64,000 bases of DNA, taken from Minisyncoccota bacterium. GTDB lineage: Bacteria; Patescibacteriota; Microgenomatia; UBA1400; UBA12028. Location: NCBI GenBank assembly GCA_016211945.1, contig JACRHV010000006.1:46723-110722 (forward strand), read 5' to 3'. A program made the position numbers and the translations under genes. Positions 27,087 to 59,030 of the stretch are shown piece by piece (position 1 is the stretch's first letter; each line of letters opens with the position of its first letter). The notes below the pieces were generated by a model. That model did not search any database, was not told the DNA's origin, and was given only the letters and a program-made list of their open reading frames with translations.

Positions 27087-27149
27087 CGTTATGATTGTGG
27101 ATAAGTCTCTTTCCCCTGCCTGAAAATAAATAAGATATCCACATTTTTC
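27087..27149. promoter_or_regulatory. cluster of three DnaA boxes between rpmH and dnaA
   Basis: TGTGGATAA (27087-27095, perfect reverse-complement TTATCCACA), ATATCCACA (27125-27133, 8/9), TGTGGACAA (27141-27149, 8/9). Confidence 0.6.
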
Positions 27150-27170
27150 TGTGGACAAAAGGCGCTCTAT

Positions 27171-28628: not shown

Positions 28629-28906
28629 GTATTTTTGGGGATAACGAGGGAAAACCTCTCTTCATATTGTGTATATGTGCATATCGCACGAGGAGATATC
28701 CACTTATACACATTTTCCGAGAGTTTTCCACAAACTTTTCCACATTTTTACGGCAGTAATCAACACGAAGGTATCCCACACTAGTCGGTTCTCTCTCCAA
28801 AAGTTTTCCTCTTTTCCCCAACACTACTACATACTACTACTATCTTAAGATATATATTAGAGAAACAAACTTTGCTTTTTTTCTTTTTCCACATACAATA
28901 TCGACT
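28629..28906. other. candidate oriC segment (DnaA-box-like motifs + AT-rich unwinding element) between dnaA and dnaN
   Basis: 278-nt non-coding spacer with ATATCCACT, TTTTCCACA (x2), TATCCCACA-like motifs and AT-rich 'TCTTAAGATATATATTAGAG' near dnaN start. Confidence 0.5.
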
Positions 28907-31844: not shown

Positions 31845-31908
31845 AGCGTTTTTATCTTAACATAAAAATATAGATGCCTTTTTTCGCAACGAAGGACTAC
31901 ATCACTGC

Positions 31909-32793: not shown

Positions 32794-32807
32794 GATCGCG
32801 CCCGTAT

Positions 32808-33914
32808 TTATAATGGAGAAACAATTGCTCCATGAAGAGACAGTCTCATTGTATCAAAGGAATACCCATCTTTTTCTACGACAATGTTGTATTCGCCGGA
32901 GGGAAGCGGGGTTGAGACGAAAAATTGACCAAGCTTGTTCGATCGCAGTGCGCGAAGAGGCATTCCTAGATGGTCTTGAATTTCTATAATACACTGATCA
33001 ATCATCTTTCCGGATTGGTCAAGAATCATGCCAACCACAAGATTTGGAGTAGTTGGTGTTTTGGGGAAGGGAAGTGCAGTATTTGTTTGCACTTGAGCAA
33101 GATTTTCTCCAACACGAAGTGTGGGTTGCTGAACCGTTATGGGTCGTATAGAAGAAATATTTTCATCGATAAGATGTTGTGGAGCAATACTCTCTTCTTT
33201 CTGTAATTCAACATGAATGGGATGTTGTGAGGGAATTGCCACAGGCCCTTCGTATGTTGATTGACCAAACGTTTTTGCGGCATCAAATATTGTTTTGTTT
33301 TGTTGTTTGTCTTCGTCAACAGTGATAGAAATTGGTGATTGTGCGAAGGCGTGGAGGTTGTGCATCTCAACATGAAGCGATGGTTTTTCCGGTGCAATTT
33401 TTGTAGATGATGGACGAATGTTTGTGGACGCCGGCACAGAATCATACAACGAAATGACCGATGCTGCCTGGTAAAACAGGTCAGTTTCATCTTGAGATGG
33501 AAGCGAATTTTGTGTTATAGACTGGAAATACGCGGCCGCTCGCGCGCGTTTCCTCGGAAGCGTTGTTTCTGGTGTGTTTGGAAGTGTAGAAGAAAGCGTT
33601 GAATAGGAGAAGGCCTCGGGAATTCTCGCGGTTTTTTTCCAGTAAAATTTTGTTGGATTGTAAATCGCTCGAAGAAAAGCAAGAAACCAATGGTCAAGTG
33701 GGCGCTCCTCCAGTGGGATGAACGCAAACGCTACTCCCAAGAGGACGAAGAAGATCGTGAGCGGCCACTTCAATATGCCCGGGAGATTGGAGGAGTATGA
33801 CATGAATGCGAGAAGGCCTCCGGCACCCAACTCGAAAAACTGCTTGATTGTCATGTTGCCAATAAGGTGAAATTCGTACGAGGTAATATTCTGCGGGACA
33901 GGATGCTCTTGCAT
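32808..33914 (-). CDS. VirB3-like membrane protein fused to C-terminal Ig-like (carboxypeptidase-regulatory-like) domain
   Basis: N-terminal 2 TMs with 'FFELGAGGLLAF' and 'IPLEERPLDHWF' (VirB3/PrgI-like, immediately upstream of VirB4); C-terminal beta-sandwich-like 'LGQFFVSTPLPSGEYNIVVEKDGYSF'. Confidence 0.4.
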   Translation of the reverse strand: MQEHPVPQNITSYEFHLIGNMTIKQFFELGAGGLLAFMSYSSNLPGILKWPLTIFFVLLGVAFAFIPLEERPLDHWFLAFLRAIYNPTKFYWKKTARIPEAFSYSTLSSTLPNTPETTLPRKRARAAAYFQSITQNSLPSQDETDLFYQAASVISLYDSVPASTNIRPSSTKIAPEKPSLHVEMHNLHAFAQSPISITVDEDKQQNKTIFDAAKTFGQSTYEGPVAIPSQHPIHVELQKEESIAPQHLIDENISSIRPITVQQPTLRVGENLAQVQTNTALPFPKTPTTPNLVVGMILDQSGKMIDQCIIEIQDHLGMPLRALRSNKLGQFFVSTPLPSGEYNIVVEKDGYSFDTMRLSLHGAIVSPL

Positions 33915-34022
33915 GATTTTATTGTAGCAGGAAAACGAAGATATCCTTTCTACATAACAAAGAACTGTATTGCCTAAAAAAGAGCAACTTCGTTTTTTCT
34001 TCTCATGTCCAAATACAAAAAC

Positions 34023-34994
34023 CTATGGTTGGACCGCGGGAACAATAACCTCCATTGTTGAAGTATAGTTTTGGGGAGTTGTGGCGGTTCCGACAAATCG
34101 AAAATACGGGAAATATGTTTGATCAACGCTTCGGTACTCCAAGGATACCTGGGTAAAAATGATTGAGGAGAAATCCTGGACAGAAACATCAATAGGGGTT
34201 TGTGCGCGATTATTCACACCAATAGTGAGAAAAGTACCACCCCCACTTTTGATTTCCTGGAGAGCGTTTTCTACTGGACGCGTGGAATATGTTTTCTCAA
34301 CTTGCGCTTGTGTGTATTGATACGGAAGAAAACGAGCAGCCTCTATCCCACGAGAGGAAAGAGTAATAAGCGCGACAGGAAGAGAAGAATTTTCAGCGTA
34401 GAGGGGAAATCCATCGACGGTTAATGTAAAGGGAATAATAATAATGGCGGAGGCGCTCACATTTTGAAGAGGCGCACCATGAAGGTCATTAAAATATAGA
34501 ACTTGATCCTTTTGTGGTGAGAGGGAAGAAAAACCAAGTGAATCGAGAAAATCTTGTGCGGGAACGAGCGCTGTTTCGTAAGAAAGAGGAGTTTCAACTT
34601 CAGGGGAAGCTTGAACAGTATATGTGACGGCCTGCGAAACTTCATCAATGAGGAGGAATGATGTCTTATTTTCTCGCACCCAATATCCCTCAACACCACT
34701 TTCTTTTAACTGTAGTTTTTGTGCGAGTTTTGTAGAGAACTCACGTAGATCTGAAGTAAGAGGTGTTGAGGAATAAAGAGGAAGAACTTGTGGGAAACTT
34801 GGGAGAGATCCAGAGAATTCAACAGATTGAAAACGCGTTGTTGTTCCAGTCGGACTCGTGAGAACAGAAGGTGATTGTTTTTTTTGTAACGCAAATTGAA
34901 GTATAAAAAGGACAAAAACAAGAAGGGCAAGAAAAAGAAGGAAAAATAAAAGAGGATGTTTTTTTATTTTGGAAACAGCAAGAAACATTTTCAT
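34023..34994 (-). CDS. membrane-anchored extracytoplasmic protein of the T4SS-like operon (VirB8-like topology?)
   Basis: single N-terminal TM 'LLFFLLFLALLVFVLFILQF' then ~280-aa Ser/Thr-rich domain; start at internal Met gives 4-nt overlap with upstream gene. Confidence 0.45.
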   Translation of the reverse strand: MKMFLAVSKIKKHPLLFFLLFLALLVFVLFILQFALQKKQSPSVLTSPTGTTTRFQSVEFSGSLPSFPQVLPLYSSTPLTSDLREFSTKLAQKLQLKESGVEGYWVRENKTSFLLIDEVSQAVTYTVQASPEVETPLSYETALVPAQDFLDSLGFSSLSPQKDQVLYFNDLHGAPLQNVSASAIIIIPFTLTVDGFPLYAENSSLPVALITLSSRGIEAARFLPYQYTQAQVEKTYSTRPVENALQEIKSGGGTFLTIGVNNRAQTPIDVSVQDFSSIIFTQVSLEYRSVDQTYFPYFRFVGTATTPQNYTSTMEVIVPAVQP

Positions 34995-37900
34995 GGTGTA
35001 GGTCCTCCCGCACATTCTGATTTTACAGGGTCATTAACTTTCGGAAGTGTGGGGAAAATAGGAAGATTTGTGTAAATATGCCCCTTAGCCTTCTGGTTCT
35101 GCCTTTCATAGTGTAGGTGTATTCCAAAAGAAAACCCAGTATTTCCCGTTAGACCAAGATGGCTTCCGGGATTCACGCGAACCCTTTGGGAGATGTTTCC
35201 GGGATTTAAATTCCCATTGAACGCGGACATATGACCAAAAATAAACACAATTCCTTCGTCTGTATGCAAAACAACATGGTTGCCATAAAGCACGTAAGCA
35301 AGCGGAGAAGACGTCATGGGCACAAAGTATGCGTATCCACCAAATGGAGAGTATATGGGGGTTGGCCCGGTGGCCGCGGTACCAATGTCTATCGCGTTTC
35401 CAGACAGATCCCAAGTTGCGTGACCGGGATCAGCAAGTTGTGTAATAACACCCGTCGTTGGCCAGCAGCCCTTATGAGCCACGCCATCCAACCCCTCAAC
35501 GTTCACGTTATTTACACTGCTTATATTTGCCACAGCATCTCGGTTGGTCACAAATGGCCCCAAATTCAGAATATTCGCAACTCCCCCTATCGTTAACGCC
35601 CCCATCGCTGTCCAGGCGATTGTTGTTCCGCTAATAGTGGTACTTGCTAAGGTACTCAGTGATTGAATCCCGTTCGAGAGAACAGCAGATCCTGCGCGTA
35701 AACCGCTTATTATCTGCTGTCCAACTCCTTTGGCAAGCAGCTTTATTCCAGATAAAGCGGAAGAAAATGCGTGTGAGAAAAAAGAAAAAACACCCTGAAA
35801 AGATTGAAAGAGTTTAAAAATTTGCACAAGAGATGCGATAAGTGACGCAAAACCCGCAAGTAGGGAGAGGATCCCGAGTCCGATGAGAAAGTTGACAAAC
35901 TTACCAAGATACTCGATTCCTTTGAGGTTTTGTTCGATAATTCCATCAAGAAAACCTCCAATAATGGGAATACTTGCGATCCATGACTTAATCGCCATCG
36001 CGGTGTCGAACGCGACGTCCCAAGCCTGTCCAGCTTCGGGGCCGGCAAATAACGTTAATAATGCGCCAATTGCTTGTTTTCCTCGTTCGATATCGGCAGA
36101 CCTGTCGGAGTTTCCTAAAAACTGTTGATGTTGAGCTTCGCCGCTGAACTCAGATATCTCGAGAATATATGATGGGGCCGTAAAAAGAAGTTCGAACTCA
36201 TCTGTTCCAAATCCGCGCATCATGTACTCGAAAAAAACAGCCTCATTACCCCACGCATCAGCATTACCATGAATAAAGTCTTGAATTTCTCCTGCGCTCC
36301 AAATCTGTGAGGCAAGGTATTGAAAAAATCCCCGTTTCGCATGAATCCTTCGGGCAGTTTGTTGCGCCTCATTTTTCTGATCAAGCGCTTTCTGTATAAA
36401 AGCAGACTGTTTATGAAGCTCTCCGTCTGTAATCTTTCCGTTTTTATGCTGTTGTTTCAGGACGGCTAACTGGTTTGCGAGCGCAGTTTTTGGCGAAAAC
36501 AAACTATGAGACATGACCTTGTGACCGTTGATGTGCTGTCCTTGTTCATCAACATCGCTCATATCCTCAAGGAGTTTTTGTAGAAGCGGGTTTACGGATG
36601 AAGATTTTAGGCTGAGCGGATCTGCATAGAGGGCTGCAGGATTGTCTGACGCAAGATATGCTTCATATGCCAGCGCATCCATATATTGGGTAAGCAATAT
36701 GGCAAAAGCGACATTGTCGTTATGGAACGCTCGACGAATACGCTCTTGTGTTTGTGGTTCTGTACGAAATTCGTTGAGGACTGCTTGAGCAAAATCTTCT
36801 AAGTCTTTTGAGGTGAGATTGGTGGAGTTTTGTCGCAAAAGCGATTTTGCTTGCAGAGAGAGAAGGAGTTTGTCTATTTGTGAGTAGGTTAGCCCTTCTT
36901 TTTGTAAGGACTCGCGAAGAAAATCCTCAAAAGATCGCGAAGATATGTCTTTTATTTGTGAAGCCTCTTGGAGAGAAGAAAGACGTTCTTCTTTTTGTAC
37001 ACCATCTTGCTCAAGGGCATTCCAGTATTGCGCGTCAGCCGCAAGCGCAAGATTATCTGGAGTAATCCCATGCTTCTCACTGAACGCACGGAGATTCTCA
37101 AGAGATTCTCCTTTTTTGATGAGCCTATTGGAGATGAGGTGTTGTTCGAGCGCCGCCTGAAAAGATGGATTGTGCTGTAGACTGATAAGAGTACTAATAT
37201 AAAGATTTATTCTTGCAGAGCCTTCACCCCCAGTTGAAGTTAAAAATGCGGAAAGACGCGTAGAATCAAGCCTTTGGAGTTCGTAAAGAATGGTAGGAGT
37301 GATGTGTCGAGAAATTTGTGACTCAAGCGCTTGGAATCCTTTTGGATTTTTATCAGGATTGATTCCGGCTTGGGCGGCAACAGCGTAAAGAATGGCGTGT
37401 CGAATCCGCGCGACTTCATCGCTTAATGCGCGATCCTGAACAACAAGTTTTTCGATGGAGATTTGCTGATCTACAGGTTTTTTTGTCTCTATTTTCTCTT
37501 TTTCTTCACGAAGAACTTCTTCTGCGGCGTCAGAGTCAGTTTCTTGCGTTGATGAAGTAGAGAATGTGGCTCCGGCTGTTTGTTTTGGAGCGGAAGCCGC
37601 CTTTTCCTGCGGTATTGGCTCTGGCTCTTCTGCTTTTTTTGTTGCTGTAACCTCTTGTTTTACTCCGTATGAGCTAAACTCCAACAAGATTTCCGTTAGA
37701 GTAAGTGCGGCCTCAATAGACTCAATGACTCTAGATTTTTTGTCCGCCCTGTTTATGCCGAAAAAATATTCGCGTTGGATATAGTCCCAAAGATGTGTAT
37801 TGTATGATGTTTCATCTCGATGAAGAAAAAGAAACTCATCAACTGTAGCAAGCCAAATGATTAATGCATGGAATTCCACCTCTTCTTTTCTTGGATGAGG

Positions 37901-38161
37901 ATTGAGATGGGGGTAGAGGTGATAAATAACCGCACTTTTTGTGAGTCCTACAAGCGTTTTTCCTTCAGATTCTGAAACAAAGCTATCGGCGCTGTATGTT
38001 CCGTCACTAAAAAGATAGAAAAAAACGGTATCATTGCGATACCGCTCAAGCATCTCAAGAACATCTCTTCCTTTGATCGCGTATTGGCGGTCTATGGCGT
38101 TTTTTAGAGCATCAGATATCGTGTGTTCCGTCTGGATATGAGCCATGAATGTATTGTACAT
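34991..38161 (-). CDS. 1056-aa protein: large N-terminal domain, TM cluster, C-terminal M23 (LytM-type) peptidoglycan endopeptidase
   Basis: TM 'FLIGLGILSLLAGFASLIASLV'; C-terminal 'GNHVVLHTDEGIVFIFGHMS...LGLTGNTGFSFGIHLHYE' (M23 HxxxD...HxH motifs). Confidence 0.65.
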   Translation of the reverse strand: MYNTFMAHIQTEHTISDALKNAIDRQYAIKGRDVLEMLERYRNDTVFFYLFSDGTYSADSFVSESEGKTLVGLTKSAVIYHLYPHLNPHPRKEEVEFHALIIWLATVDEFLFLHRDETSYNTHLWDYIQREYFFGINRADKKSRVIESIEAALTLTEILLEFSSYGVKQEVTATKKAEEPEPIPQEKAASAPKQTAGATFSTSSTQETDSDAAEEVLREEKEKIETKKPVDQQISIEKLVVQDRALSDEVARIRHAILYAVAAQAGINPDKNPKGFQALESQISRHITPTILYELQRLDSTRLSAFLTSTGGEGSARINLYISTLISLQHNPSFQAALEQHLISNRLIKKGESLENLRAFSEKHGITPDNLALAADAQYWNALEQDGVQKEERLSSLQEASQIKDISSRSFEDFLRESLQKEGLTYSQIDKLLLSLQAKSLLRQNSTNLTSKDLEDFAQAVLNEFRTEPQTQERIRRAFHNDNVAFAILLTQYMDALAYEAYLASDNPAALYADPLSLKSSSVNPLLQKLLEDMSDVDEQGQHINGHKVMSHSLFSPKTALANQLAVLKQQHKNGKITDGELHKQSAFIQKALDQKNEAQQTARRIHAKRGFFQYLASQIWSAGEIQDFIHGNADAWGNEAVFFEYMMRGFGTDEFELLFTAPSYILEISEFSGEAQHQQFLGNSDRSADIERGKQAIGALLTLFAGPEAGQAWDVAFDTAMAIKSWIASIPIIGGFLDGIIEQNLKGIEYLGKFVNFLIGLGILSLLAGFASLIASLVQIFKLFQSFQGVFSFFSHAFSSALSGIKLLAKGVGQQIISGLRAGSAVLSNGIQSLSTLASTTISGTTIAWTAMGALTIGGVANILNLGPFVTNRDAVANISSVNNVNVEGLDGVAHKGCWPTTGVITQLADPGHATWDLSGNAIDIGTAATGPTPIYSPFGGYAYFVPMTSSPLAYVLYGNHVVLHTDEGIVFIFGHMSAFNGNLNPGNISQRVRVNPGSHLGLTGNTGFSFGIHLHYERQNQKAKGHIYTNLPIFPTLPKVNDPVKSECAGGPTP

Positions 38162-38166
38162 GAAAA

Positions 38167-39978
38167 CTACGACACAAGCCGCGCAGGACTTCCAACGAGC
38201 GCTGAATATGTCATTTCAAATACACCAAATCGCATGCCACCCGCATATGCGATTGAAAGCCAGGAGGGTAGATGTTCAGTATCGTGCGTGTAAGAAGTTG
38301 GTTTTTCTGATGACGCATTTTTTTCTTCAGAATGGCGCACAAGCGATTTTAAGGTATCTTTTGCTTCACAAAAATAACAAATTCCGCACTCGCCAACCCA
38401 ATCGCCAACATGTTTTCCCGCATGTTTTTTTTCACGTTTACGCTCACACAGAGGATTTTTACACCCCTCATCAGAGAACTTCCACGCTGTGTCAAATCGG
38501 TGCGCACCAATGAAGGAACGGAGCTGTTCTTGCGTAAAATCTTGACTACGAAAAAATGAAAGAAGTGCATCAGAAGTTCCAAAAGATTGTAGGTCTGGGA
38601 TGCCTAAAGAGGAGGCAAATGAAGGTTGTGATAACACCGTTCGTATGCCGCCGAACGGAGTTCCCGCTGCGCAGTCGACGACTGACAAAAAGTCAAACTG
38701 TAGAGAACCCATGGTTGGTGCTTTTTTAATAATGTGGGACAAAAATGTTTCTCGTACTTCCGGAAGTTTTTCTGAAGCAAGAGTTTTTCGCCGTTTTGGA
38801 TGCAGAAATTGTTTGTATGCATCCCACACCGCATTTGAATTAAAATCGCCATCGTCAAATCCAAGACCATTCATAGCAACCTCGTTTGCGATGCTCAGCG
38901 CAGCTTCTGAATACGCGTCGTGGTGAAGATATTCTTCAATCAGAACAGAGGTCATGGTCTCCACAACCCTCCTCATTCTTTTTTCGCGAGTATTGAATCG
39001 CGCAATTGCTGTTTGGTGTTCTGTAAGAATAGTTTGAATCTGAGGGGAATCAAGAGAAGCTTTGTGGAGAAGCGCCGTGAAGAATGATTGTGTGTCCAAA
39101 TGTTGAAACATGAAATCAACAGGAAGAATCTGTTGCATTAGTTCCGGTTCTGTTTGGGGGAGAGGGGGTTGGGAGGTATGGAGAGATGCATGTTCCATGA
39201 GATGTGAGAGCTCAGACAAAGGAAGAGCGGCCTTGTACTGATGAAGAAACACAAAGAATTGGTGGCCTTCCGGTAAATAGGGGTTGTATGCGAGCTGGAC
39301 GGCCTCAAGAAATGATTCTCTGTCTGGATGATATACTTGGTGATCTGGCATCGCAAAAATATATTTTTGACCAACAGATGTCGCCCTATCAGCTTCTTTT
39401 CGCATGTGCGGAGGAATAGTCTTTCGGATGTCCTGAGGAAGAGAACCTGAATATGAAATAAATCCTTCAGGAGGAGTGTGTGCGATGTGTTCAATAAGCA
39501 TGTGTGGCGCTGTATGAGAAAGTTCGGAGCTCATAAGAGTCATCACTTCCTTAAGTTGAGCTGCTTCTCTTGCATACCGCTGTGCTCGTTCTAGGTCATG
39601 ATTCTTCATGGCAAGCATCATCGCTTTGCGCTGCTGATCCATAAGACCTTGGTGTGCGTATTGAACTCCCACCAAATCGTCGATATGCAATGTTTGTGCT
39701 GTATGCCACAGAGGAGTGACGACGTTGCAGTAAAAACGAAAACGCATTTCTTCTTGGAGATACGTCGCGTACTCTTTGTGTAAAAGTTCCGAAACGTGCG
39801 GTCGAACGCGCTTTTTTGTAATGAATGAAGGAGTGTTTCCGTAGTGCTGAAAAAGAGATTCAATGGGACCACGGAGTGTGTGGTAGAGATTGAATCGAGG
39901 AACAGGTATGCCAGTGCGTTGTTGAATATATTCTTTGGTTGGAGAACGTCTGGTACGAGTTTCGGCTGCAACGGCCAT
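38167..39978 (-). CDS. hypothetical 603-aa protein (first gene of the minus-strand T4SS-like operon)
   Basis: long ORF, no TM or P-loop, Cys cluster 'CERKREKKHAGKHVGDWVGECGICYFCEAKD'; no family recognised. Confidence 0.5.
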   Translation of the reverse strand: MAVAAETRTRRSPTKEYIQQRTGIPVPRFNLYHTLRGPIESLFQHYGNTPSFITKKRVRPHVSELLHKEYATYLQEEMRFRFYCNVVTPLWHTAQTLHIDDLVGVQYAHQGLMDQQRKAMMLAMKNHDLERAQRYAREAAQLKEVMTLMSSELSHTAPHMLIEHIAHTPPEGFISYSGSLPQDIRKTIPPHMRKEADRATSVGQKYIFAMPDHQVYHPDRESFLEAVQLAYNPYLPEGHQFFVFLHQYKAALPLSELSHLMEHASLHTSQPPLPQTEPELMQQILPVDFMFQHLDTQSFFTALLHKASLDSPQIQTILTEHQTAIARFNTREKRMRRVVETMTSVLIEEYLHHDAYSEAALSIANEVAMNGLGFDDGDFNSNAVWDAYKQFLHPKRRKTLASEKLPEVRETFLSHIIKKAPTMGSLQFDFLSVVDCAAGTPFGGIRTVLSQPSFASSLGIPDLQSFGTSDALLSFFRSQDFTQEQLRSFIGAHRFDTAWKFSDEGCKNPLCERKREKKHAGKHVGDWVGECGICYFCEAKDTLKSLVRHSEEKNASSEKPTSYTHDTEHLPSWLSIAYAGGMRFGVFEMTYSALVGSPARLVS

Positions 39979-51260: not shown

Positions 51261-51830
51261 TTATTTACATCCTCCGCGTCCGTCCGGATTTACCCCAGAG
51301 TCGCATGGAGCGTTTCCCGCATTACAGTTACAGGTGTCGCTAATCCCAAATCCACACATACCCTGATTTTTTCCACCGCATGTATTACAAATATTTGGAT
51401 TATTGAGAGTAATTGGAGTTTTCCCCTGACAATACGGATTCGAAGACCCCGTTCCAGTAGAGGAGGTTCCGCCAAGATCTCCAGAGATGCGTGTGAAATC
51501 TGGTGCCAAGAGATCAATTCCAAGTGCGGTGCCAAAGAATGTACTGATGGCCGCGACTGAGAATAATACAGCCAATCCAATAAGACCCTGTGTGATTCTA
51601 TCTTTTGCTTGCTCGATTTTCCCCTTATCACCTCCCGCAGAAATCCAGGTCAACCCACCCATAATCATGTATGCAACAACCGCCAATCCACCAAGAACGA
51701 GGGAAGTTTGCCACAGAATTCCAATATATTTCCCCAAACCTGTACCAGCAACATCGGGATTAGCTGCGTTTTGCAGTCCTGCAGGGAGAGCGGGATTTGA
51801 GATGTCGGCCAACATTGTAGATAACGTCAT
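51261..51830 (-). CDS. VirB2/TrbC-like two-TM pilin candidate, paralog 4, with Cys-rich C-terminal extension
   Basis: 'AYMIMGGLTWISAGGDKGKIEQAKDRITQGLIGLAVLFSVAAI' then 60-aa tail with 10 Cys ('CNTCGGKNQGMCGFGISDTCNCNAGNAPCDSG'). Confidence 0.55.
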   Translation of the reverse strand: MTLSTMLADISNPALPAGLQNAANPDVAGTGLGKYIGILWQTSLVLGGLAVVAYMIMGGLTWISAGGDKGKIEQAKDRITQGLIGLAVLFSVAAISTFFGTALGIDLLAPDFTRISGDLGGTSSTGTGSSNPYCQGKTPITLNNPNICNTCGGKNQGMCGFGISDTCNCNAGNAPCDSGVNPDGRGGCK

Positions 51831-51831
51831 A

Positions 51832-52209
51832 TTATTGCCACAACCCTTCCAACATTTTTACGGGACTGAGAATACTGATTCCCAACACACCACCAACAAT
51901 ACTAATGATAAACTGAGCAAGAATGACAATAATGAGTCCGATCGCAGCGTTCGTCATTTGAGTTCGAGCAGCCTCAACCTTTCCTTTATCCCCACTGGCG
52001 GAAAGCCAAGCCAACCCACCGAAAACGAAGTACATAAGAAACATAAGTCCGCCAATAATAGTGAAGAAACCCAGAAAAACAGAGAGAAATTTTTCAATTG
52101 CTCCGCCCCCTGCCTCGGCTCCAGTTCCATCTGCTGGTCGGAAATACGGACTCGTTCCCTGGATTGTTCCTTGAAGAGGGTTTTGCGCAAGTAAAGAGAG
52201 TACGTTCAT
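51832..52209 (-). CDS. VirB2/TrbC-like two-TM pilin candidate, paralog 5
   Basis: 'MYFVFGGLAWLSASGDKGKVEAARTQMTNAAIGLIIVILAQFI'. Confidence 0.55.
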   Translation of the reverse strand: MNVLSLLAQNPLQGTIQGTSPYFRPADGTGAEAGGGAIEKFLSVFLGFFTIIGGLMFLMYFVFGGLAWLSASGDKGKVEAARTQMTNAAIGLIIVILAQFIISIVGGVLGISILSPVKMLEGLWQ

Positions 52210-52718
52210 CGCGTTCTTCCCCCGTTATTGTTCCGATCTCGTAGTGAATCAGGTAGCGCTTTGAGAATAGCGTCAATGTCTCCATTGGATGAGGAACCGG
52301 AGTTTCTTCCCGGACCCCCCTCTGGACCACCGCCAGATGAAGCAGGAGCTCCCGGGCCTTGAATAACAGGACTCACAAAAAAAGTAGCATCCTTGAAGAG
52401 GAGAAATCCAGTCAAAGCCATAAGGGCAGGGGCAAGAATCATAATGACCAAACCCCACAGACTCATGTTTAATTTACTCATGACTTTCTCATGTGCTTTT
52501 GCATCTCCTGCTGAAGTAAGATAGGTATATCCAGCCATGACAATGTTATACAGAGCAATGAGTCCCCCTACAATAATTGCCATTCTTAACAGATTTGTTG
52601 TGAGAGTAATAAGTCCACCACTAGCACCGTAATCTGCAATCGCAGCTGGCGGTGTTATTGTTCCAAAAAATGTTGAGTCTGCCATTATTCTTTTTCCTAC
52701 ATTACTACGGACCACCAT
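52206..52718 (-). CDS. VirB2/TrbC-like two-TM pilin candidate, paralog 6 (divergent loop, Gly/Ser/Asn-rich C-terminal extension)
   Basis: 'LYNIVMAGYTYLTSAGDAKAHEKVMSKLNMSLWGLVIMILAPAL' then 'PGAPASSGGGPEGGPGRNSGSSSNGD'; real start possibly the internal Met of 'MADSTFF'. Confidence 0.5.
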   Translation of the reverse strand: MVVRSNVGKRIMADSTFFGTITPPAAIADYGASGGLITLTTNLLRMAIIVGGLIALYNIVMAGYTYLTSAGDAKAHEKVMSKLNMSLWGLVIMILAPALMALTGFLLFKDATFFVSPVIQGPGAPASSGGGPEGGPGRNSGSSSNGDIDAILKALPDSLRDRNNNGGRTR

Positions 52719-53037
52719 TCAATATGGGCTGTCCTATGACAATTTGTACAACTTGGATGATCCAATAAGCAGAAAGGATGACCAAAAAACCAATGACTGC
52801 AGTTTGAATAGTCTGCATTCCTTTCTCTGTTCCCTTAGGATCTCCTCCTGACATAAGTATAGTAAGTCCGCCGCCAATGAGCAAGCCAAAAATGATAATT
52901 CCAGCAAACACATACATGTTTGGAAGAACAACTTTATTTAAAAAATCTGCTGGAGTAGCAAAGACGTCTGCAACGGAAGAGGAGCTGTTCAATTTATATT
53001 TCTCACCCAAATCAATAGCAATAAGCGTGCCATTCAT
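52705..53037 (-). CDS. VirB2/TrbC-like two-TM pilin candidate, paralog 7
   Basis: 'IFGLLIGGGLTILMSGGDPKGTEKGMQTIQTAVIGFLVILSAYWIIQVVQIV'. Confidence 0.55.
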   Translation of the reverse strand: MNGTLIAIDLGEKYKLNSSSSVADVFATPADFLNKVVLPNMYVFAGIIIFGLLIGGGLTILMSGGDPKGTEKGMQTIQTAVIGFLVILSAYWIIQVVQIVIGQPILNGGP

Positions 53038-53060
53038 GATGGAAGTATTGTATCACAGGT

Positions 53061-53459
53061 TTATTGAGGAGTTGCAGACGATGTTCCGGTTTTTTGTGTC
53101 GCACTTTCTGTCGCTGTGCTTTCTTTTTTTGGTGTTCCTGCTTCTGCTGTAACCGCAGTCTTCTTTAATCCCTTTTCATCTGTCTCGGTAATTTCTTTGA
53201 TAATAGGGAAAGTTGACAGAACTTCATCGGGATACAACTTTCTTTGTCTCAAGTCTTGAAGCGTTTTTATATCAAGTACGGGGGTAAGCGGTTGAACTTG
53301 TCGCTGAACTGTTGGCGGAATAGACGATTTGTGAAGAGAAAAATATATTGTCATTCCGATCCAAACTCCAACAGCAACCAAGGATACGACAAAAATCGTC
53401 AGGATAATCTGTCTTCTAAAAAGCGATTTGATGAATGGTTGTTCCTGTGCTGCGTTCAT
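53061..53459 (-). CDS. hypothetical single-pass membrane protein (Thr/Ser-rich C-terminus)
   Basis: TM 'IILTIFVVSLVAVGVWIGMTIYF'; co-oriented between PilO-like gene and pilin-like array. Confidence 0.45.
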   Translation of the reverse strand: MNAAQEQPFIKSLFRRQIILTIFVVSLVAVGVWIGMTIYFSLHKSSIPPTVQRQVQPLTPVLDIKTLQDLRQRKLYPDEVLSTFPIIKEITETDEKGLKKTAVTAEAGTPKKESTATESATQKTGTSSATPQ

Positions 53460-54133
53460 GGTGTTTTTTCATCCTTCTTTGCAGAACTTCCTGGAAGTTG
53501 TATTGGAGTGCCATAGTATGCAACGCGAAAAGCAATAGTTGTAATGAGTGAGCTGGTTTTCTCAAATTCGTCTCGTTTCGCATTCATTACAAGCGAATCA
53601 ACCGAAACATACCGATCCATTGCCAACATCTCGGCAATAAACGCGCGGACGAGTGGGTATGGGGCCTTCAGATTGACGCTGATCAAATAACTTGTGAGCT
53701 GAGGAGCGGTGCTCGTTGCTTCTTTTGGAACTTGTGTGACCTGCAGCGAGTTAATGAGTACGGTATGTGCCGTTGCGACATACTCAAGACGTCGCATGAA
53801 TCCATCAAAATTTGGTGTGTTCGGTATTGCTTTATGAAGTAAGCTTACTTCATTCTTTAACGTCGGAAGCTCACTACTTAATGTAGAAAGTGAGGCTATT
53901 TTTTTTGAAAGTGCGTCGCTCGTTTTTCTCCGGTCCTCGATATCATGGAGCAGTTGTGACATGGTGAGCAACGTTGGACGAATGGCAAAAAGCGCGAGAA
54001 GGATGACCGCGAGAAGTGTTGCAATAAGCTCTGTGGAGACCTTTGCAATCGGTTTTTGATAAAACTGTTGCAGCTGCCTCACCGTTTGGTTGCGTGGTGC
54101 GGAGGGTATTGAAGAAAACGGTGAGTGTATCAT
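53456..54133 (-). CDS. PilO-like type IV pilus/secretion inner-membrane assembly protein
   Basis: 225 aa; short cytoplasmic N-term, TM 'LIATLLAVILLALFAI', coiled coil, then ~120-aa C-domain; overlaps PilN-like gene by 4 nt. Confidence 0.45.
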   Translation of the reverse strand: MIHSPFSSIPSAPRNQTVRQLQQFYQKPIAKVSTELIATLLAVILLALFAIRPTLLTMSQLLHDIEDRRKTSDALSKKIASLSTLSSELPTLKNEVSLLHKAIPNTPNFDGFMRRLEYVATAHTVLINSLQVTQVPKEATSTAPQLTSYLISVNLKAPYPLVRAFIAEMLAMDRYVSVDSLVMNAKRDEFEKTSSLITTIAFRVAYYGTPIQLPGSSAKKDEKTP

Positions 54134-54705
54134 GACGTTTTCCCTCCCGGTATGGGTTGTATTTGCACGCGAATAGAAAACTCTAGGCCGGCACCACCCT
54201 GCGTATTGCTTTTAATTTGATCGACATACAATGCTTTTGTTTGCGGTTGTTTTTGAAGTCTGCGCACAAGAACAGCCAACGATTCAGGAGTAAGTGCGTT
54301 CCCAGTAATCTGCACTTCCTGTGCGCGAATCTGAACAAGTGTATAGACCACATCTTTAGGAATGCTTTTTGCGAGAACATCAAGCGCACTCAACGGATCC
54401 TGTGTCCCTTTTTGTTGTTGGAGGAACTCCGTTTTTTTCTGGATGAGACGTACATCCGACTCTAATGTTCCGTACGAATCAACAATGTAGGACTTTTGTG
54501 TAATGGATGAGTTCAGATCAGTAAGATCGCGGTCGAGTTTAAAACGAGAGGCGAAACTGATAATGACAACAATTTCAGTAAAAATAACAAGGTAGCGACC
54601 AACAGTGGAGGCCCACGCCATAATGCGCCCAACGGGAGTCTCAAAAAAAGGATCCTGAGGAAGCAAATTTATCGACAGATGGCGGGGCTGGACGCTGGTC
54701 TGCAT
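54130..54705 (-). CDS. PilN-like assembly protein (INLLP motif)
   Basis: 191 aa; N-terminal 'LSINLLPQDPFF' (PilN INLLP PilM-binding motif) followed by TM 'YLVIFTEIVVIISFA' and periplasmic domain. Confidence 0.55.
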   Translation of the reverse strand: MQTSVQPRHLSINLLPQDPFFETPVGRIMAWASTVGRYLVIFTEIVVIISFASRFKLDRDLTDLNSSITQKSYIVDSYGTLESDVRLIQKKTEFLQQQKGTQDPLSALDVLAKSIPKDVVYTLVQIRAQEVQITGNALTPESLAVLVRRLQKQPQTKALYVDQIKSNTQGGAGLEFSIRVQIQPIPGGKTS

Positions 54706-54775
54706 AAAAATATGATAGCAGAAAAAGAAGATGGGAGGCTGGGAGTTCTGGTGAAAAGCGTAAAATAGAGGGGGT

Positions 54776-55309
54776 ATGAAATATAATTATTCTGAGGCAG
54801 ACGTTTTACTTCTTCAATCTGGTGATGTTCGTGCTGTAGAACGATGGTTTCGTACGTTTCAAAAACCACTGTTCGCCTTCATTCTTACTCGAGTATCTGA
54901 TCTGCATGATGCAGAAGAATTGTGTCAAAATACTTTTCTCTCTTGTCTTGAAACACTCCCGTTGTATAGAGGAACATCATCGCTTTTTACTTGGATGTGT
55001 GCGGTGGCAAAGCATGAGATTGCGGATTACTTTAGGAAAAAATATGCCAAACGCGCACTACAACTCATTCCATTTGGAGAAACATTGTTGCCCGAACATC
55101 TTCATACTATGCACGATGTTTCGGATACGGTTCGTAGGGTACTCAAGAAACTAACGCAAAAGGAGCGAGAACTTCTTTTTCTGAAATACATAGACAACGC
55201 AAGTGTAAAATCAATCGCGCATTCATTGGGGATGAGTATGAAAAGTATAGAGTCGATGTTATATAGGGCAAGAAAAGCGTTTCAAAGGATTTATGCAGAA
55301 CACATCTAG
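54776..55309 (+). CDS. RNA polymerase sigma factor, ECF (sigma-70 regions 2 and 4)
   Basis: region 2 'LSCLETLPLYRG...FTWMCAVAKHEIADYFRK'; region 4 HTH 'ASVKSIAHSLGMSMKSIESMLYRARKAF'. Confidence 0.8.
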   Translation: MKYNYSEADVLLLQSGDVRAVERWFRTFQKPLFAFILTRVSDLHDAEELCQNTFLSCLETLPLYRGTSSLFTWMCAVAKHEIADYFRKKYAKRALQLIPFGETLLPEHLHTMHDVSDTVRRVLKKLTQKERELLFLKYIDNASVKSIAHSLGMSMKSIESMLYRARKAFQRIYAEHI

Positions 55310-55532
55310 CAAAGATTTTCAATATCAGTTGTATACACTTGCTCGGGAGCAAAAAGAACTGATGGAAACGAGTTTTCTCCCAAGGTGGATGGGGGGTGGT
55401 GCGGTATGGTTTGCAACACACGCTTTTTTGAGTATTGTTAGTCTTGTTTTTTTTGTATGCGTCGTTATCATGTCGTTTTGGTTTCCAACATTCTTGCACT
55501 GGGCTGACCTGCTCATAGGGAGGCCGCAATGA
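55293..55532 (+). CDS. small membrane protein, possible anti-sigma factor
   Basis: 79 aa, overlaps sigma-factor stop; one TM 'AFLSIVSLVFFVCVVIMSFWF'. Confidence 0.35.
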   Translation: MQNTSSKDFQYQLYTLAREQKELMETSFLPRWMGGGAVWFATHAFLSIVSLVFFVCVVIMSFWFPTFLHWADLLIGRPQ

Positions 55533-55846
55533 TCTCGATAAAAAACATCTCATGGGCGTTGGTATACACGCTGTTTGAGATTACACAGGGATTTTTCTTG
55601 CATCCATATCAAACGATGCGACAAGTTATTCGCGATCGAGTGTTTGTGTGGACTATTGGAATGCCACTTGTGCTCTGGGCAGTACTCATTTTTGTCTGGA
55701 GAATAGGATGGAATCTCTTGTTTTCATTAATACCTTTTTCTGTCTTTTGGCTTTTTCTTGCACTGTGGATATCAGGATCAATACTTTTGTATCAACTCCT
55801 TCTCCTCTATCTTTTTTATCGATTCCTCCGGGCAAAAGTTGCGTGA
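55529..55846 (+). CDS. small polytopic membrane protein
   Basis: 105 aa with 3 hydrophobic segments; ATGA overlap with upstream ORF. Confidence 0.4.
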   Translation: MISIKNISWALVYTLFEITQGFFLHPYQTMRQVIRDRVFVWTIGMPLVLWAVLIFVWRIGWNLLFSLIPFSVFWLFLALWISGSILLYQLLLLYLFYRFLRAKVA

Positions 55847-56100
55847 TTTGTCGGGCAACTTGCGACTACATACATGTGTCGAACGAAGCGAATAGTCCAT
55901 CGAGATACTGGAGAAACCAGGGACAGGAGAGAAATCCCACAGGGTGGATCTGTCCTTCATGCGGAACTATCGTTTCTACACACAGGCGTTCATGTGTAAA
56001 AGAGGGATGTTGTGGAAGGAGAAAGAGTGAAGGATTTATATTATGGCCAACTCAAATAGGGTCACGAATAATAGAACTTATGAAGGAATATGAACAATGA
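55843..56100 (+). CDS. small zinc-ribbon protein (GTG start)
   Basis: 85 aa 'CRATC...CPSCG...CVKEGCCG'; GTGA overlap with upstream stop and ATGA overlap with idi start suggest translational coupling. Confidence 0.3.
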   Translation: MICRATCDYIHVSNEANSPSRYWRNQGQERNPTGWICPSCGTIVSTHRRSCVKEGCCGRRKSEGFILWPTQIGSRIIELMKEYEQ

Positions 56101-56654
56101 ACCACCAACACGATCAAGTTCAATGTGTTGATGAACACAATACTCCGACTAACGTTATGGATAAACTAGAAGCGCATCGAGGCGATGGAAAACGGCATCG
56201 TGCAGTTTCCGTATTTTTATTGAATAGTACGGGGGAGTTGCTCATTCAAAAGAGAAGTGCAAAAAAAATTGTCGGCGCCTTACAGTGGGCAAACACATGT
56301 TGCGGAAATGTATGGCCGGGAGAGACATATGAGCAATGCGCACAAAGACGTTTAAGAAAAGAACTCGGAATTACTCGGGCAAAAATAATGCCCGCTTATA
56401 CATTTGAATATCATCTGCGATGTAACGACAAATATAGTGAGTGGGAAATGGATAGAATATTTGTTGGTAGATACCGTGGAAAATTAACGCTGGATCCAGA
56501 AGAAGTTTTAGATGCTCTGTACATCTCCCAGGAAAAGTTAGAGATAAACATGCGGAATAATCCCGAAGATTTTAGCCCATGGTTTCACCTCATATTGAGA
56601 GATCCACGTTTACGTGAAGCAATAGGATGGAGAAGAGATGCAAAAATTCAGTGA
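56097..56654 (+). CDS. idi: isopentenyl-diphosphate delta-isomerase, type 1 (Nudix fold)
   Basis: 'HRAVSVFLLNSTGELLIQKRSAKK', 'WANTCCGNVWPGE' (Idi catalytic Cys region), 'EWEMD'. Confidence 0.7.
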   Translation: MNHQHDQVQCVDEHNTPTNVMDKLEAHRGDGKRHRAVSVFLLNSTGELLIQKRSAKKIVGALQWANTCCGNVWPGETYEQCAQRRLRKELGITRAKIMPAYTFEYHLRCNDKYSEWEMDRIFVGRYRGKLTLDPEEVLDALYISQEKLEINMRNNPEDFSPWFHLILRDPRLREAIGWRRDAKIQ

Positions 56655-57222
56655 GATGAGTTCACCAGAGCTTCTACGCTATGTAGAGAGAGCCACCAAA
56701 AAAAGAGGAGTAGTGGTAAAACTGTTGGTTGTTGGATGCTCAAACGATGTTCTTGTTATTCCTGTTCCTGTGGCAGATAAGGAGATATACGGAGCAGAAA
56801 AACACGATGTCGTAGTAAAAAATGGCGCAGTCTGTGTTCGTCAGGGTTTACGCCAAGCGAAATTTGGCACGGTTGGCGGTGGCGTTCATACTGATGAATC
56901 TATAAGTTTTGCGGCTACAAGGGAATGTATCGAGGAATTTGTTGAGTTGGGTCTTTCATTGGATGAAATAAAGGCATTTGCACATACGGTATTCTCTGTT
57001 TCACGCCCATTAGGTCTTACAGTGTTTCAGTGGATTACAAGTGAGACAGAAGAAGTGTTGCGAGGAGTTTTTGATCTGTACAGTGTAGATGTTCTGCTCA
57101 ATGGAGAACAATGTGGCATACTTGCAAGGCGTGGCGCGACTTTTCTTCAGGCAGTAGAAACAGAGTCTTTGCGATCATATATGCAGGTTTTACAAAAAGA
57201 ATGGAGGACGCATGCCAACTAG
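56638..57222 (+). CDS. hypothetical protein with degenerate Nudix-like box
   Basis: 'GGGVHTDESISFAATRECIEEFVELG' approximates Gx5Ex7REUxEExGU with Gly replaced. Confidence 0.35.
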   Translation: MQKFSEMSSPELLRYVERATKKRGVVVKLLVVGCSNDVLVIPVPVADKEIYGAEKHDVVVKNGAVCVRQGLRQAKFGTVGGGVHTDESISFAATRECIEEFVELGLSLDEIKAFAHTVFSVSRPLGLTVFQWITSETEEVLRGVFDLYSVDVLLNGEQCGILARRGATFLQAVETESLRSYMQVLQKEWRTHAN

Positions 57223-57481
57223 AGGAGAGGGTGTTTTTATTAATATTCATGGATTACATAATGAAGACCTCAATCGTTTATCAACTTTTCTCGCGCCAGA
57301 AGAAGTTGCGCGAGTTTTTCGTTTAATACATGGAGAGAGGTATGAATATTTTTCCTACGCTATGGAAGACACGCCGGCCGTTCTTCGTGCACTTCTTGAA
57401 GAAACTCTACAGAGGTACAACAAAGAACAGTATCCTGATTTGGTTTGGGAAATAAAAGAGTCAACGGGGGTTATCGCATGA
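57212..57481 (+). CDS. hypothetical small protein
   Basis: 89-aa ORF overlapping both neighbours by a few nt; no motif. Confidence 0.3.
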   Translation: MPTRGEGVFINIHGLHNEDLNRLSTFLAPEEVARVFRLIHGERYEYFSYAMEDTPAVLRALLEETLQRYNKEQYPDLVWEIKESTGVIA

Positions 57482-58290
57482 AATCATCTGTCGTCCTCAT
57501 AAAGCTGGGTGGGTCGATTATTACAAACAAGGATATTCCACTTTCTCTACGTTCAGATGTATTAAAGCGATTGGTACAAGAGATTGTCGACGCAAAACGT
57601 ACACTGAGCACAAAACGCCACGCCCCACTTTTTATTGTTGGGCATGGACAGGGGAGTTTTGCGCACGCGCCCGCAATGAAGTATCAAACAATGCAAGGAT
57701 TTGTGAATAATGAAAGTCGTATGGGAATGGCAATTGTCCAAGATACCGCAGCTCAGCTCAACAGACTTGTTATCCATGAATTTCTTGAGGCAGGAATTCC
57801 CGCAGTCTCTCTTTGTCCAAGCAACAGTTTAGTCACGGATAAAAGAAAAGCGACCTCGTACTTTTCTGATGTGTTTGAAGAATATCTTCGCAGAGGTCTT
57901 TTCCCAATTACCGGCGGTGATGTCATTGTGGATAAGACACAAGGATGCACGATCTGGTCAACAGAAGAAGTACTCGCTTTTTTTGCGCGTATTTTCGTGA
58001 AGCATGGATGGAGGGTTGAACAGATTATCCATGTTGTCGAGGTAGATGGAGTATATGATCTCAAGAAGCAAGTTGTCTCCGTGGTAACGAAAAAAGTGTG
58101 GGAAGAGCTCCAACACGCAGTCACCACAACAAAAGGGTTTGATGTTACTGGTGGTATGGCATTAAAAGTTCGAGAATCACTTGATTTAGCAAAACTTGGG
58201 ATTCATTCGCGCATTCTCTCTGGATTGAAAGAAAATAATTTGTATAACGCACTTACTGGACAGCGGTGGGAAGGAACAGAAATTCAATAA
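57478..58290 (+). CDS. isopentenyl phosphate kinase (amino-acid kinase family)
   Basis: 'MKSSVVLIKLGGSIITNKD' N-terminal Gly-rich loop of IPK/AAK family, 'FIVGHGQGSFAH'; start placed at internal Met giving ATGA overlap. Confidence 0.7.
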   Translation: MKSSVVLIKLGGSIITNKDIPLSLRSDVLKRLVQEIVDAKRTLSTKRHAPLFIVGHGQGSFAHAPAMKYQTMQGFVNNESRMGMAIVQDTAAQLNRLVIHEFLEAGIPAVSLCPSNSLVTDKRKATSYFSDVFEEYLRRGLFPITGGDVIVDKTQGCTIWSTEEVLAFFARIFVKHGWRVEQIIHVVEVDGVYDLKKQVVSVVTKKVWEELQHAVTTTKGFDVTGGMALKVRESLDLAKLGIHSRILSGLKENNLYNALTGQRWEGTEIQ

Positions 58291-58310
58291 GTTCTGGTAC
58301 AATACTCGAT

Positions 58311-59030
58311 ATGTCTGATGCGTCTTCTTCTTTAGTCACCCTCGCAAAAAATATCAAACATATTGCTATTCTTATGGATGGTAATCGCCGTTGGGCTAAG
58401 GCCAAAGGTTTGGGCGCGGTCAATGGACACGAATATGTAGTAAATCATGTTATTGAACCTCTTGTTGACCGTTGTATTGAGTTGGGTATTCCATACCTCA
58501 CAATGTGGGCGTTTAGTACGGAAAATTGGGATCGCGACAGAAACGAACTCGAAGCAATTATGCAGTTGTTCCGCATGGCCTTTGAAAAAAAAGTGGAGGA
58601 CCTTCATCGCAAAGGGGTGCGGTTGCGCATTTTGGGTGAAATCGAAAAGTTTCCAAAAGATATTGCGAAGCAGGCAAAACGGTGGGTGGAGATCTCCAAG
58701 AACAACACAAAGATTACCGTGAGTTTTGCCTTAAATTACGGGGGGCGCGACGAGATATTGCGGGCGGTGCGGAAGCTGGTGGCGAGTGGGGTAAATGCGG
58801 AGCAGGTAACAGAACAGGCAATTTCATTGAACCTTGATACCACAGATGTTCCTGATCCTGATCTTATCATTCGTCCCGGTGGCCAGTTCCGCCTTTCCGG
58901 TTTTATGGCGTGGCAGTCGGTTTACAGCGAGCTCTACTTTACGCCGGTCCTCATGCCGGACTTTACGATTACAGAGTTTGATAAAGCCCTTGAAGACTAC
59001 GGGAACAGGAAAAGAAGGTTTGGGAAGTAG
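58311..59030 (+). CDS. uppS: undecaprenyl diphosphate synthase (cis-prenyltransferase)
   Basis: 'HIAILMDGNRRWA', 'YLTMWAFSTENWDR', 'FALNYGGRDEI' UPPS motifs. Confidence 0.85.
   Translation: MSDASSSLVTLAKNIKHIAILMDGNRRWAKAKGLGAVNGHEYVVNHVIEPLVDRCIELGIPYLTMWAFSTENWDRDRNELEAIMQLFRMAFEKKVEDLHRKGVRLRILGEIEKFPKDIAKQAKRWVEISKNNTKITVSFALNYGGRDEILRAVRKLVASGVNAEQVTEQAISLNLDTTDVPDPDLIIRPGGQFRLSGFMAWQSVYSELYFTPVLMPDFTITEFDKALEDYGNRKRRFGK

Follow-up and report, generated by a model that had tools for sequence, protein, structure and literature searches.

The DNA analysed here is a 64-kb stretch (hereafter the window), in which positions 54776-59030 of the plus strand carry an isoprenoid gene cluster built around an isopentenyl phosphate kinase (IPK). 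According to the list of open reading frames (ORFs) and direct reading of the sequence, the cluster consists of nine tightly packed, mostly overlapping genes. In order, these encode a 177-aa sigma factor of the extracytoplasmic function (ECF) type, group 4 (sigma, 54776..55309); a 79-aa protein in which a short N-terminal helix is combined with a single hydrophobic segment (ORF2 or o2, 55293..55532); a 105-aa polytopic membrane protein with an HPYQT motif (ORF3 or o3, 55529..55846); an 85-aa GTG-initiated zinc-ribbon protein (ZNR, 55843..56100); a type-1 isopentenyl-diphosphate isomerase of 185 aa (IDI-1, gene idi, 56097..56654); a 194-aa divergent Nudix-fold protein (ORF6 or O6, 56638..57222); an 89-aa lineage-specific protein (ORF7 or O7, 57212..57481); the IPK itself (270 aa, 57478..58290); and undecaprenyl-diphosphate synthase, a cis-prenyltransferase (UppS, 58311..59030; 239 aa from ATG 58311, or 254 aa if translated from GTG 58266). 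Database proteins identical to O6 (HZA34_03105) and IPK (HZA34_03115) are encoded on a 228-kb contig of a metagenome-assembled genome of a Candidatus Pacebacteria bacterium.

The start and stop codons of neighbouring genes interlock along most of the cluster. A common ATGA joins o2 to o3 (55529-55532), ZNR to idi (56097-56100) and O7 to IPK (57478-57481), and a common GTGA joins o3 to ZNR (55843-55846). The overlap is 17 nt between sigma and o2 (o2 ATG at 55293, sigma stop TAG at 55307-55309), again 17 nt between idi and O6 (O6 ATG at 56638, idi TGA at 56652-56654), and 11 nt between O6 and O7 (O7 ATG at 57212, O6 TAG at 57220-57222). After the IPK stop codon (58288-58290), the most likely start of uppS follows 20 nt further on, at ATG 58311, which was also the choice of the gene caller on an identical Logan contig; identity to the UppS proteins of relatives (72-76%) begins at about residue 4-15. 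The ZNR reading frame, which the gene caller did not call, may start at GTG 55843 or at GTG 55876. No terminator-like sites were found on the plus strand between 54776 and 59030, and the neighbours on both sides (pilN-like gene upstream, 213-aa ORF downstream) lie on the opposite strand. Because the junctions overlap and no plus-strand terminator was detected, the nine genes appear to form one operon as far as this can be read from the sequence. A candidate sigma-70-type promoter, TGGACG-16 nt-TATGAT (54689..54716, plus strand), lies in the 70 nt that separate sigma from the divergent pilN-like gene; sites of this type were no more numerous in the region than expected by chance, and the match is weak evidence for a promoter. 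The original prediction, which was made from the DNA sequence alone, had described a single translationally coupled operon with an ECF sigma factor, a membrane protein, a zinc ribbon, idi, a Nudix-like protein, IPK and uppS. All of its ORFs and their start/stop overlaps were recovered by direct reading, the profile scores and folds described below agree with its gene assignments, and the overlapping junctions are in line with the proposed coupling.

The sigma factor contains the Pfam domains Sigma70_r2 (residues 25-89) and r4_2 (residues 118-168), i.e. regions 2 and 4 only, and its score of 76.5 bits against TIGR02937 (cutoff 42.9) places it among the ECF (group 4) sigma factors. Neither o2 nor the o3 protein of the window matched any Pfam or NCBIfam family, and no recognisable anti-sigma domain was found in o2. 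The isomerase scored 136.2 bits against NF002995 (cutoff 127) and 103.5 bits against TIGR02150, just below the cutoff of 105.8; its best PDB matches were all IDI-1 (top match 3hyq, 1.4e-20), and it aligns with the E. coli and Salmonella enzymes. We take Cys67 and Glu116 to be the catalytic residues of E. coli IDI, and His25, His32, His69, Glu114 and Glu116 to be its metal ligands; the protein from the window retains the equivalents of H25, H32, C67, E87, E114, E116 and W161. UppS matched PF01255 over profile positions 2-219 of 219 (247.9 bits) and scored 225.6 bits against TIGR00055 (cutoff 109.55), and is therefore a member of this family.

The IPK scored 193.7 bits against NF040647 (IPPK_Arch, cutoff 120) and 91.3 bits against PF00696, and stood clearly apart from the fosfomycin kinases (36.4 bits for FosC and 27.2 bits for FomA). 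All PDB matches at E<=1e-24 were IPKs, headed by the M. jannaschii enzyme (3k4o, 8.7e-30). The motifs KLGGS, GHGQGSFAH and FDVTGGM align with those of archaeal IPKs, and KLGGS, GHGxGSFxH and DVTGGM were invariant across 21 IPKs from the Candidate Phyla Radiation (CPR). On the NF040647 score, the PDB matches and the motifs, the product of 57478..58290 groups with isopentenyl phosphate kinases, as had been proposed. The accompanying claim that such an enzyme is unusual in bacteria holds for bacteria in general but not for this lineage, where IPK is the rule: 370 homologues were found at E<=1e-10, and the best 120 of these 370 were 53-100% identical.

To place the operon among its relatives, we surveyed 85 related loci (82 of them non-redundant), comprising those that encode the closest relatives of the IPK and 80 taken from species-representative genomes by IPK alignment, and ran iterated hidden Markov models (HMMs) built for every gene of the operon over them. 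The clusters formed a graded series. The full form is exemplified by locus L070, where sigma is followed by a 76-aa ORF, an o3-like membrane protein with a Yip1 domain, HMGR, HMGS, thiolase, a DUF35 protein with an OB fold, a GHMP kinase, an MVD-like decarboxylase and IPK (domains identified by Pfam), with UppS about 0.8 kb beyond IPK; L058 and L063 are similar. An intermediate form was found in L002 (995-kb contig, IPK 74% identical to that of the window), with the order sigma-o2-o3-ZNR-66 aa-GHMP kinase-IDI-O6-O7-IPK-MVD-like-UppS. The minimal form, sigma-o2-o3-ZNR-IDI-(O6)-(O7)-IPK-UppS, is that of the window and is shared by L006, L007, L009 and others. In the window, a larger ancestral or sister arrangement is present in trimmed form. 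Within the 64 kb, no isoprenoid gene was found outside the operon, and tblastn with the HMGR, HMGS, AACT, DUF35, MVK and MVD sequences of relatives gave nothing better than E=0.04, so that no remnant of the upper pathway was detected there. Of the enzymes of a complete alternative mevalonate pathway (AACT, HMGS, HMGR, mevalonate kinase (MVK), phosphomevalonate decarboxylase and IPK), only IPK is encoded within the window.

The survey also yielded several observations on other loci. Single-domain homologues of the MVD-like protein of L002, with 44-48% identity, included many from Chloroflexi/Caldilineaceae among the matches listed. In one CPR sub-clade (L069, 8584-9953; also L057, L062, L064 and L067), two ORFs of 249 and 206 aa that lack a Pfam match lie between o3 and IPK; the first was weakly caught by the MVK HMM, and the pair may be very divergent kinases or other pathway genes. 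Metagenomic proteins P0132, P0136, P0153 and P0137 are natural fusions of an MVD-like decarboxylase with a canonical IDI-1, including MVK-IDI-MVD triple fusions; the Nudix domains fused to MVD in such proteins were considered as O6-like and rejected, being canonical IDI. Many CPR-like loci (L006, L008, L009 and others) carry the title 'uncultured Pseudomonadales' or 'uncultured Gammaproteobacteria'; since the genes at these loci are those typical of Microgenomates, the titles look mislabelled.

Orthologues of the sigma factor head the isoprenoid cluster in 42 of the 82 non-redundant loci. Among the 49 loci with at least 5 kb of upstream and 2.5 kb of downstream sequence, sigma was present in 27, and all 27 also contained UppS. 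The sigma-o2-o3-IDI block is kept as a unit even where it is inverted relative to IPK (L053, L054, L061 and L066), and the sigma-o3 pair is retained at loci whose IPK is only 35-39% identical to the query, with record titles naming Woesebacteria, Levybacteria, Cerribacteria and Microgenomates. The o2 protein was found directly after sigma in 34 loci (iterated HMM) and has a conserved short N-terminal F..L..A..Q...P motif in addition to its hydrophobic segment. The o3 family was present in 43 loci, always after sigma/o2 and with an invariant HPYQT-like motif; its 212-aa member in L070 matches Pfam Yip1 (29.4 bits, cutoff 28.6).

The zinc-ribbon protein gave no Pfam match in the window, neither to the zf-ChsH2 ribbon (PF12172) nor to the OB fold (PF01796), and on that basis does not belong to DUF35/ChsH2. 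Its family, however, fills the same operon slot in 23 loci, and some of its members reach PF12172: L040 with 30.5 bits and L034 with 25.4 bits, both above the cutoff of 23.2, and L016 with exactly 23.2 bits. In L056 the protein is a complete DUF35 protein (zf-ChsH2, 26.0 bits; OB_ChsH2_C, 71 bits), and in both L056 and L070 DUF35 occupies the operon slot that ZNR has in the window. An HMM built only from distant family members matched the window ZNR with E=1.9e-4, the aligned segment SRYWRNQGQERNPTGWICPSCG... corresponding to the family motif pRhWRLrkqRYrLegevCpvCG. In another lineage (L014-16, 19, 20, 26, 55 and 59), the O6 domain carries this ribbon as an N-terminal fusion. In archaea, thiolase and HMG-CoA synthase form a complex (HMGS/ACAT) for which DUF35 serves as the scaffold (PMC12960953). 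The ZNR family shares the rubredoxin-like zf-ChsH2 zinc ribbon with that complex, whereas the window protein is a degenerate ribbon without an OB fold, and the thiolase and HMGS partners are absent from the window. The window ZNR is therefore best read as a putative degenerate DUF35 relic, left after its partner genes were lost from the cluster; we file it as a relic and not as a member because its match is only to the family HMM, whose other members match PF12172.

Direct reading of O6 gave a Nudix box of the form G81-x5-E87-x7-R95-E96-C-I-E99-E100. A phmmer search of 1.84 billion representatives returned six homologues with 32-40% identity, in whose alignment a Nudix box is retained, and a word-index homology search found only the O6 protein itself. 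Pfam NUDIX was matched by five of the seven O6-family members (best E 3.3e-6). The AlphaFold2 model from the single sequence was unusable (predicted local distance difference test, pLDDT, 34), whereas the model based on a seven-sequence alignment reached a pLDDT of 91.5 and has a Nudix fold. With a broadened HMM, the family was detected in 30 of the 82 non-redundant loci, and in almost all of them 0-50 nt separate its end from the IPK start. K55, G81, E96 and E100 were invariant in all 36 family members, and R95, E99, Q131 and R179 nearly so. The Nudix box, the family-level Pfam matches and the structure prediction thus agree with the label 'degenerate Nudix-like' that the original prediction had attached to 56638-57222. 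A recent tandem duplication of idi was considered as the source of O6, and no evidence for it was obtained, since BLASTP of O6 against the neighbouring IDI detected no similarity. Overall, O6 is a Nudix-fold protein that evolves fast and is constantly partnered by IPK.

In 11 loci the O6-IPK pair occurs without sigma, IDI or UppS within 10 kb. A trans-polyprenyl synthase and a major facilitator superfamily (MFS) transporter adjoin the pair in L014, L019, L026 and L059 (identified by Pfam in L014 only, and presumed in the others from matching ORF sizes and order). In L014, a divergently transcribed synthase gene (PF00348, 7935-9029, minus strand) and the transporter gene (6691-7926, plus strand) lie beside the zinc-ribbon-Nudix fusion and IPK. 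In L002 (9167-9744, identical in L003), O6 is split by a frameshift into 158 and 53 aa, the 53-aa piece corresponding to the C-terminus of the family; the same frameshift is present in an independent assembly of that organism, and the split gene is either a pseudogene or an assembly error. The locus of the closest O6 homologue, L086, contains an intact O6 after MVK-IDI.

The O7 protein gave no match in Pfam or NCBIfam. Its homologues, 32-46% identical, were found only in L002/L003 and L004/5/7, i.e. in three genomes, always just before IPK and with the motif P..G...GL...D..R..TFLAP.E; a relaxed HMM search for further relatives returned only noise. O7 is probably a real but lineage-specific small protein. 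Neither O6 nor O7 matched GHMP_kinases_N, MVD-like_N or MDD_C at E<=0.1, and the HMMs built from the MVK and MVD proteins of relatives missed both. Among the loci with enough flanking sequence, MVK or MVD was rarer where O6 was present (1 of 17 versus 12 of 32; Fisher p=0.02, not phylogeny-corrected). We treat this negative association as weak because it lacks a correction for phylogeny and has two exceptions, L002 and L086; the idea that O6 excludes MVK/MVD is weakened by L086 in particular.

The core of the operon belongs to an arrangement that is already published. Hoshino & Gaucher 2018 (PMC6107057), in the passages on which we draw, report that Microgenomates carry mevalonate-pathway genes and an archaeal-type IPK, that the CPR mevalonate genes cluster with a cis-prenyltransferase gene, and that in Microgenomates the IPK gene shows synteny with those for IDI-1 and cis-IPPS, also in genomes without most mevalonate genes. 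As this synteny is known, the locus is less unusual than it might appear, and its idi-IPK-uppS core is the published arrangement: it comes from the same lineage, shows the synteny of IPK with IDI-1 and UppS, and keeps IPK and IDI without the other mevalonate genes of the cluster. Unlike the published cluster, the window has the minimal form, without AACT, HMGS, HMGR, MVK, PMVK or a decarboxylase in 64 kb. The same passages contain no ECF sigma head, Nudix partner or DUF35 relic, terms that were not searched for in that paper. Our literature search found no report pairing IPK with a Nudix protein outside plants, and none combining the Candidate Phyla Radiation, mevalonate and a sigma factor in the present sense. 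Three features are new relative to the literature searched: the sigma/o2/o3 head and its conservation, the pairing of the O6 Nudix gene with IPK, and the DUF35 relic together with its fusion to O6.

Three further systems offer comparisons. The alternative mevalonate pathway of haloarchaea and Chloroflexi consists of mevalonate kinase, phosphomevalonate decarboxylase and IPK. As in that pathway, IPK would be the last enzyme that makes isopentenyl diphosphate (IPP), and in the L002 cluster IPK is accompanied by a GHMP kinase and an MVD-like decarboxylase, while no gene of that cluster was called as a phosphomevalonate kinase. In contrast, the window lacks the kinase and the decarboxylase, and the pathway is not encoded within it. 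The link to an IPK-using (alternative) mevalonate route, which had been suggested for this operon, is supported. Hoshino & Gaucher (PMC6107057) cite Dellas et al. 2013 for the alternative pathway. In plants, a pair of IPK and Nudix hydrolase sets the ratio of isopentenyl phosphate to IPP (IP:IPP; Henry et al. 2015, 2018, as cited in PMC8248349). Here too, a Nudix-fold protein and IPK come together at the C5 phosphate/diphosphate node, in our case as known from gene adjacency. As far as described in that source, the plant link is biochemical and based on co-expression and involves ordinary Nudix members, whereas the present one consists of strict adjacency and a highly divergent family that is CPR-restricted as far as searched. 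The head of the operon resembles ECF sigma/anti-sigma modules such as those of B. subtilis sigma-M and sigma-X: a sigma factor of group 4 with two domains precedes a small single-pass membrane protein, and envelope supply genes follow in the same operon. Sigma-M and sigma-X of Bacillus subtilis are ECF envelope-stress modules whose regulons include lipid-carrier recycling genes, and their target genes lie outside the sigma operon itself. Unlike these modules, the window has no recognisable anti-sigma domain and no detected ECF-type promoter.

Based on these results, we consider it likely that the nine genes make up a single operon of a Candidatus Pacebacteria organism (Microgenomates, CPR) and a reduced form of a class-conserved mevalonate/lipid-carrier operon, which would function as follows. 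IPK would phosphorylate isopentenyl phosphate to IPP, IDI-1 would equilibrate IPP with dimethylallyl diphosphate (DMAPP), and UppS would carry out elongation to the polyprenyl diphosphate that carries cell-wall precursors. O6 would most likely be a metal-dependent pyrophosphohydrolase acting at the metabolic node of IPK and converting, e.g., IPP/DMAPP or short prenyl diphosphates to monophosphates; with IPK it would then parallel the plant pair that sets the IP:IPP ratio. The isopentenyl phosphate may be made by MVK and a decarboxylase encoded elsewhere in the genome, or may be scavenged from a host. The sigma/o2/o3 module would link the expression of lipid-carrier supply to an envelope signal, with at least part of the transcription probably starting from a housekeeping-type promoter.

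Several observations speak against parts of this reading. The Nudix box of O6 lacks the final G of the consensus G-x5-E-x7-R-E-U-x-E-E-x-G-U, and the window protein scored only 15.9 bits against Pfam NUDIX (PF00293), below the cutoff of 21.1. Since O6 is frameshifted in the closest relative, L002, it may be dispensable, and its proposed substrate is a guess from the gene neighbourhood and the plant analogy. The isomerase has Asn at the position of His69 (E. coli numbering), a metal-ligand site; this is a trait of the clade, as Asn occurs there in 27 of the 38 IDI sequences aligned from the loci, with the motif CGN(V/I/L) and not CGHP, which is retained in more distant CPR (Levybacteria-like loci). 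Full activity of the isomerase is therefore assumed. The o2 protein is a putative anti-sigma factor by position only. A search of the regions preceding sigma in the window and its relatives detected no promoter of the ECF type, and the relatives mostly carry TATTATA/TATAAT-like -10 boxes there. Because these boxes are sigma-70-like and not of the ECF type, autoregulation by the operon's own sigma factor is not evident from the DNA, and at least basal transcription looks housekeeping-type. Finally, mevalonate genes are not always clustered, and the evidence covers the 64-kb window, roughly a quarter of the 228-kb contig, a consideration that bears equally on the alternative that follows.

It is possible, though on the unlikely side, that the operon is a salvage module in an organism that lacks both the upper mevalonate and the methylerythritol phosphate pathways. 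Imported isopentenyl or dimethylallyl phosphate, or an imported conjugate from which O6 would release a monophosphate, would then serve as the C5 precursor that IPK, IDI and UppS convert to the cell-wall lipid carrier. The window, which holds no upper-pathway gene or remnant around the cluster, and the decay of the DUF35 scaffold gene to a bare zinc ribbon fit this explanation, as does the gradation of cluster content from the full set through MVK, MVD and IPK to IPK only; moreover, an MFS transporter adjoins stand-alone O6-IPK pairs, and some CPR keep IPK and IDI while lacking most mevalonate genes, according to the passages cited above (PMC6107057). On the other side, isopentenyl phosphate has no known natural source or importer. 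A more elaborate form of this proposal appears rather unlikely to us: Nudix, IPK, IDI and UppS would form a self-contained module that builds the lipid carrier from scavenged C5 phosphates in CPR without a mevalonate pathway, the Nudix/IPK pair would act as a bacterial IP/IPP rheostat or release isopentenyl phosphate from an imported conjugate, and the head of sigma factor and membrane proteins would couple supply to the state of the envelope.

We think it quite improbable that O6, O7 and ZNR are functionless, decaying leftovers and that the adjacency of sigma is inherited gene order without regulatory meaning. The frameshift of O6 in L002, its very fast evolution (six homologues by phmmer in the whole set of representatives), the loss of the OB domain from ZNR, the narrow distribution of O7 and the missing ECF-type promoter would all be expected of such leftovers. 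However, the four invariant O6 residues are kept in 36 of 36 members, the O6-IPK adjacency is kept among loci whose IPKs are ~40-75% identical to that of the window, the fusion of ZNR to O6 in one lineage implies use, and sigma and o3 remain linked in several named candidate phyla, at IPK identities as low as 35%.

It seems slightly less probable still that O6 is a cytoplasmic prenyl-diphosphate phosphatase that converts undecaprenyl or a shorter diphosphate to the monophosphate carrier and so serves UppS rather than IPK. The Nudix fold with retained catalytic glutamates would allow such an activity, plant Nudix enzymes are described as dephosphorylating prenyl diphosphates (PMC8248349), and O6 shares the operon with UppS in the window and adjoins a trans-polyprenyl synthase in stand-alone loci. 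The invariant neighbour of O6 is nevertheless IPK and not UppS, as the 11 loci with O6-IPK and without UppS within 10 kb illustrate.

That O6 and/or O7 encode the missing decarboxylation step (phosphomevalonate decarboxylase-like) of the alternative mevalonate pathway, as the original prediction had suggested for 56638-57222 and 57212-57481, is very improbable: the two ORFs do lie at a pathway-step slot, which directly upstream of IPK is filled in relatives by an MVD-like gene or by the O6 family, and MVK/MVD are rarer in O6 loci, but the fold of O6 and its catalytic helix are those of Nudix proteins and not of the GHMP or UbiD type, MVK and an MVD-like gene accompany its homologue in L002 (O6 frameshifted), as MVK does in L086 (O6 intact), O7 is limited to three genomes, and the window contains no mevalonate kinase to feed the step.

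The remaining gene content of the window (dnaA-dnaN, two YidC genes, a sortase, DUF4012, VanW, and genes of type IV secretion system (T4SS)-like and pilin types) fits a CPR bacterium. A pilin/PilO/PilN block (51261-54705) lies divergently upstream of sigma, as it also does in the closest relatives examined (L002 and L004/L005). A neighbourhood of the replication-origin type, with RNase H, KhpB/Jag-like, YidC, rnpA, dnaA and dnaN, spans 24657-30007, and the second YidC paralogue is located at 12199-13035. A T4SS-like block at 29982-39978 includes a VirB4/TraG-type ATPase, a PrgI-like protein and a 1056-aa M23-peptidase protein. A group I catalytic intron (Rfam RF00028, 56.1 bits, cutoff 50) was found at 2118-2333 on the plus strand, directly after a 131-aa ORF that starts with TTG (1719-2114) and about 117 nt upstream of tRNA-Met(CAT) at 2450-2522; a phage-type integrase gene lies nearby (773-1639, minus strand).

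The IPK homologues of CPR are described as uncharacterised in the passages cited above, and their function as a key open point for the evolution of isoprenoid synthesis (PMC6107057). The graded series from the full cluster to IPK only, the Nudix family beside IPK in about 30 genomes and the conserved sigma factor at the head of the operon provide handles on this question. These new points make it more testable, and the surprise is modest. Should the upper-pathway genes simply be encoded at another place in the genome, this would be an ordinary cluster of the published type. If, on the other hand, the operon is trimmed because the upper pathway has really been lost, it is relevant to how ultra-small bacteria with a symbiotic lifestyle acquire the lipid carrier that peptidoglycan synthesis requires.

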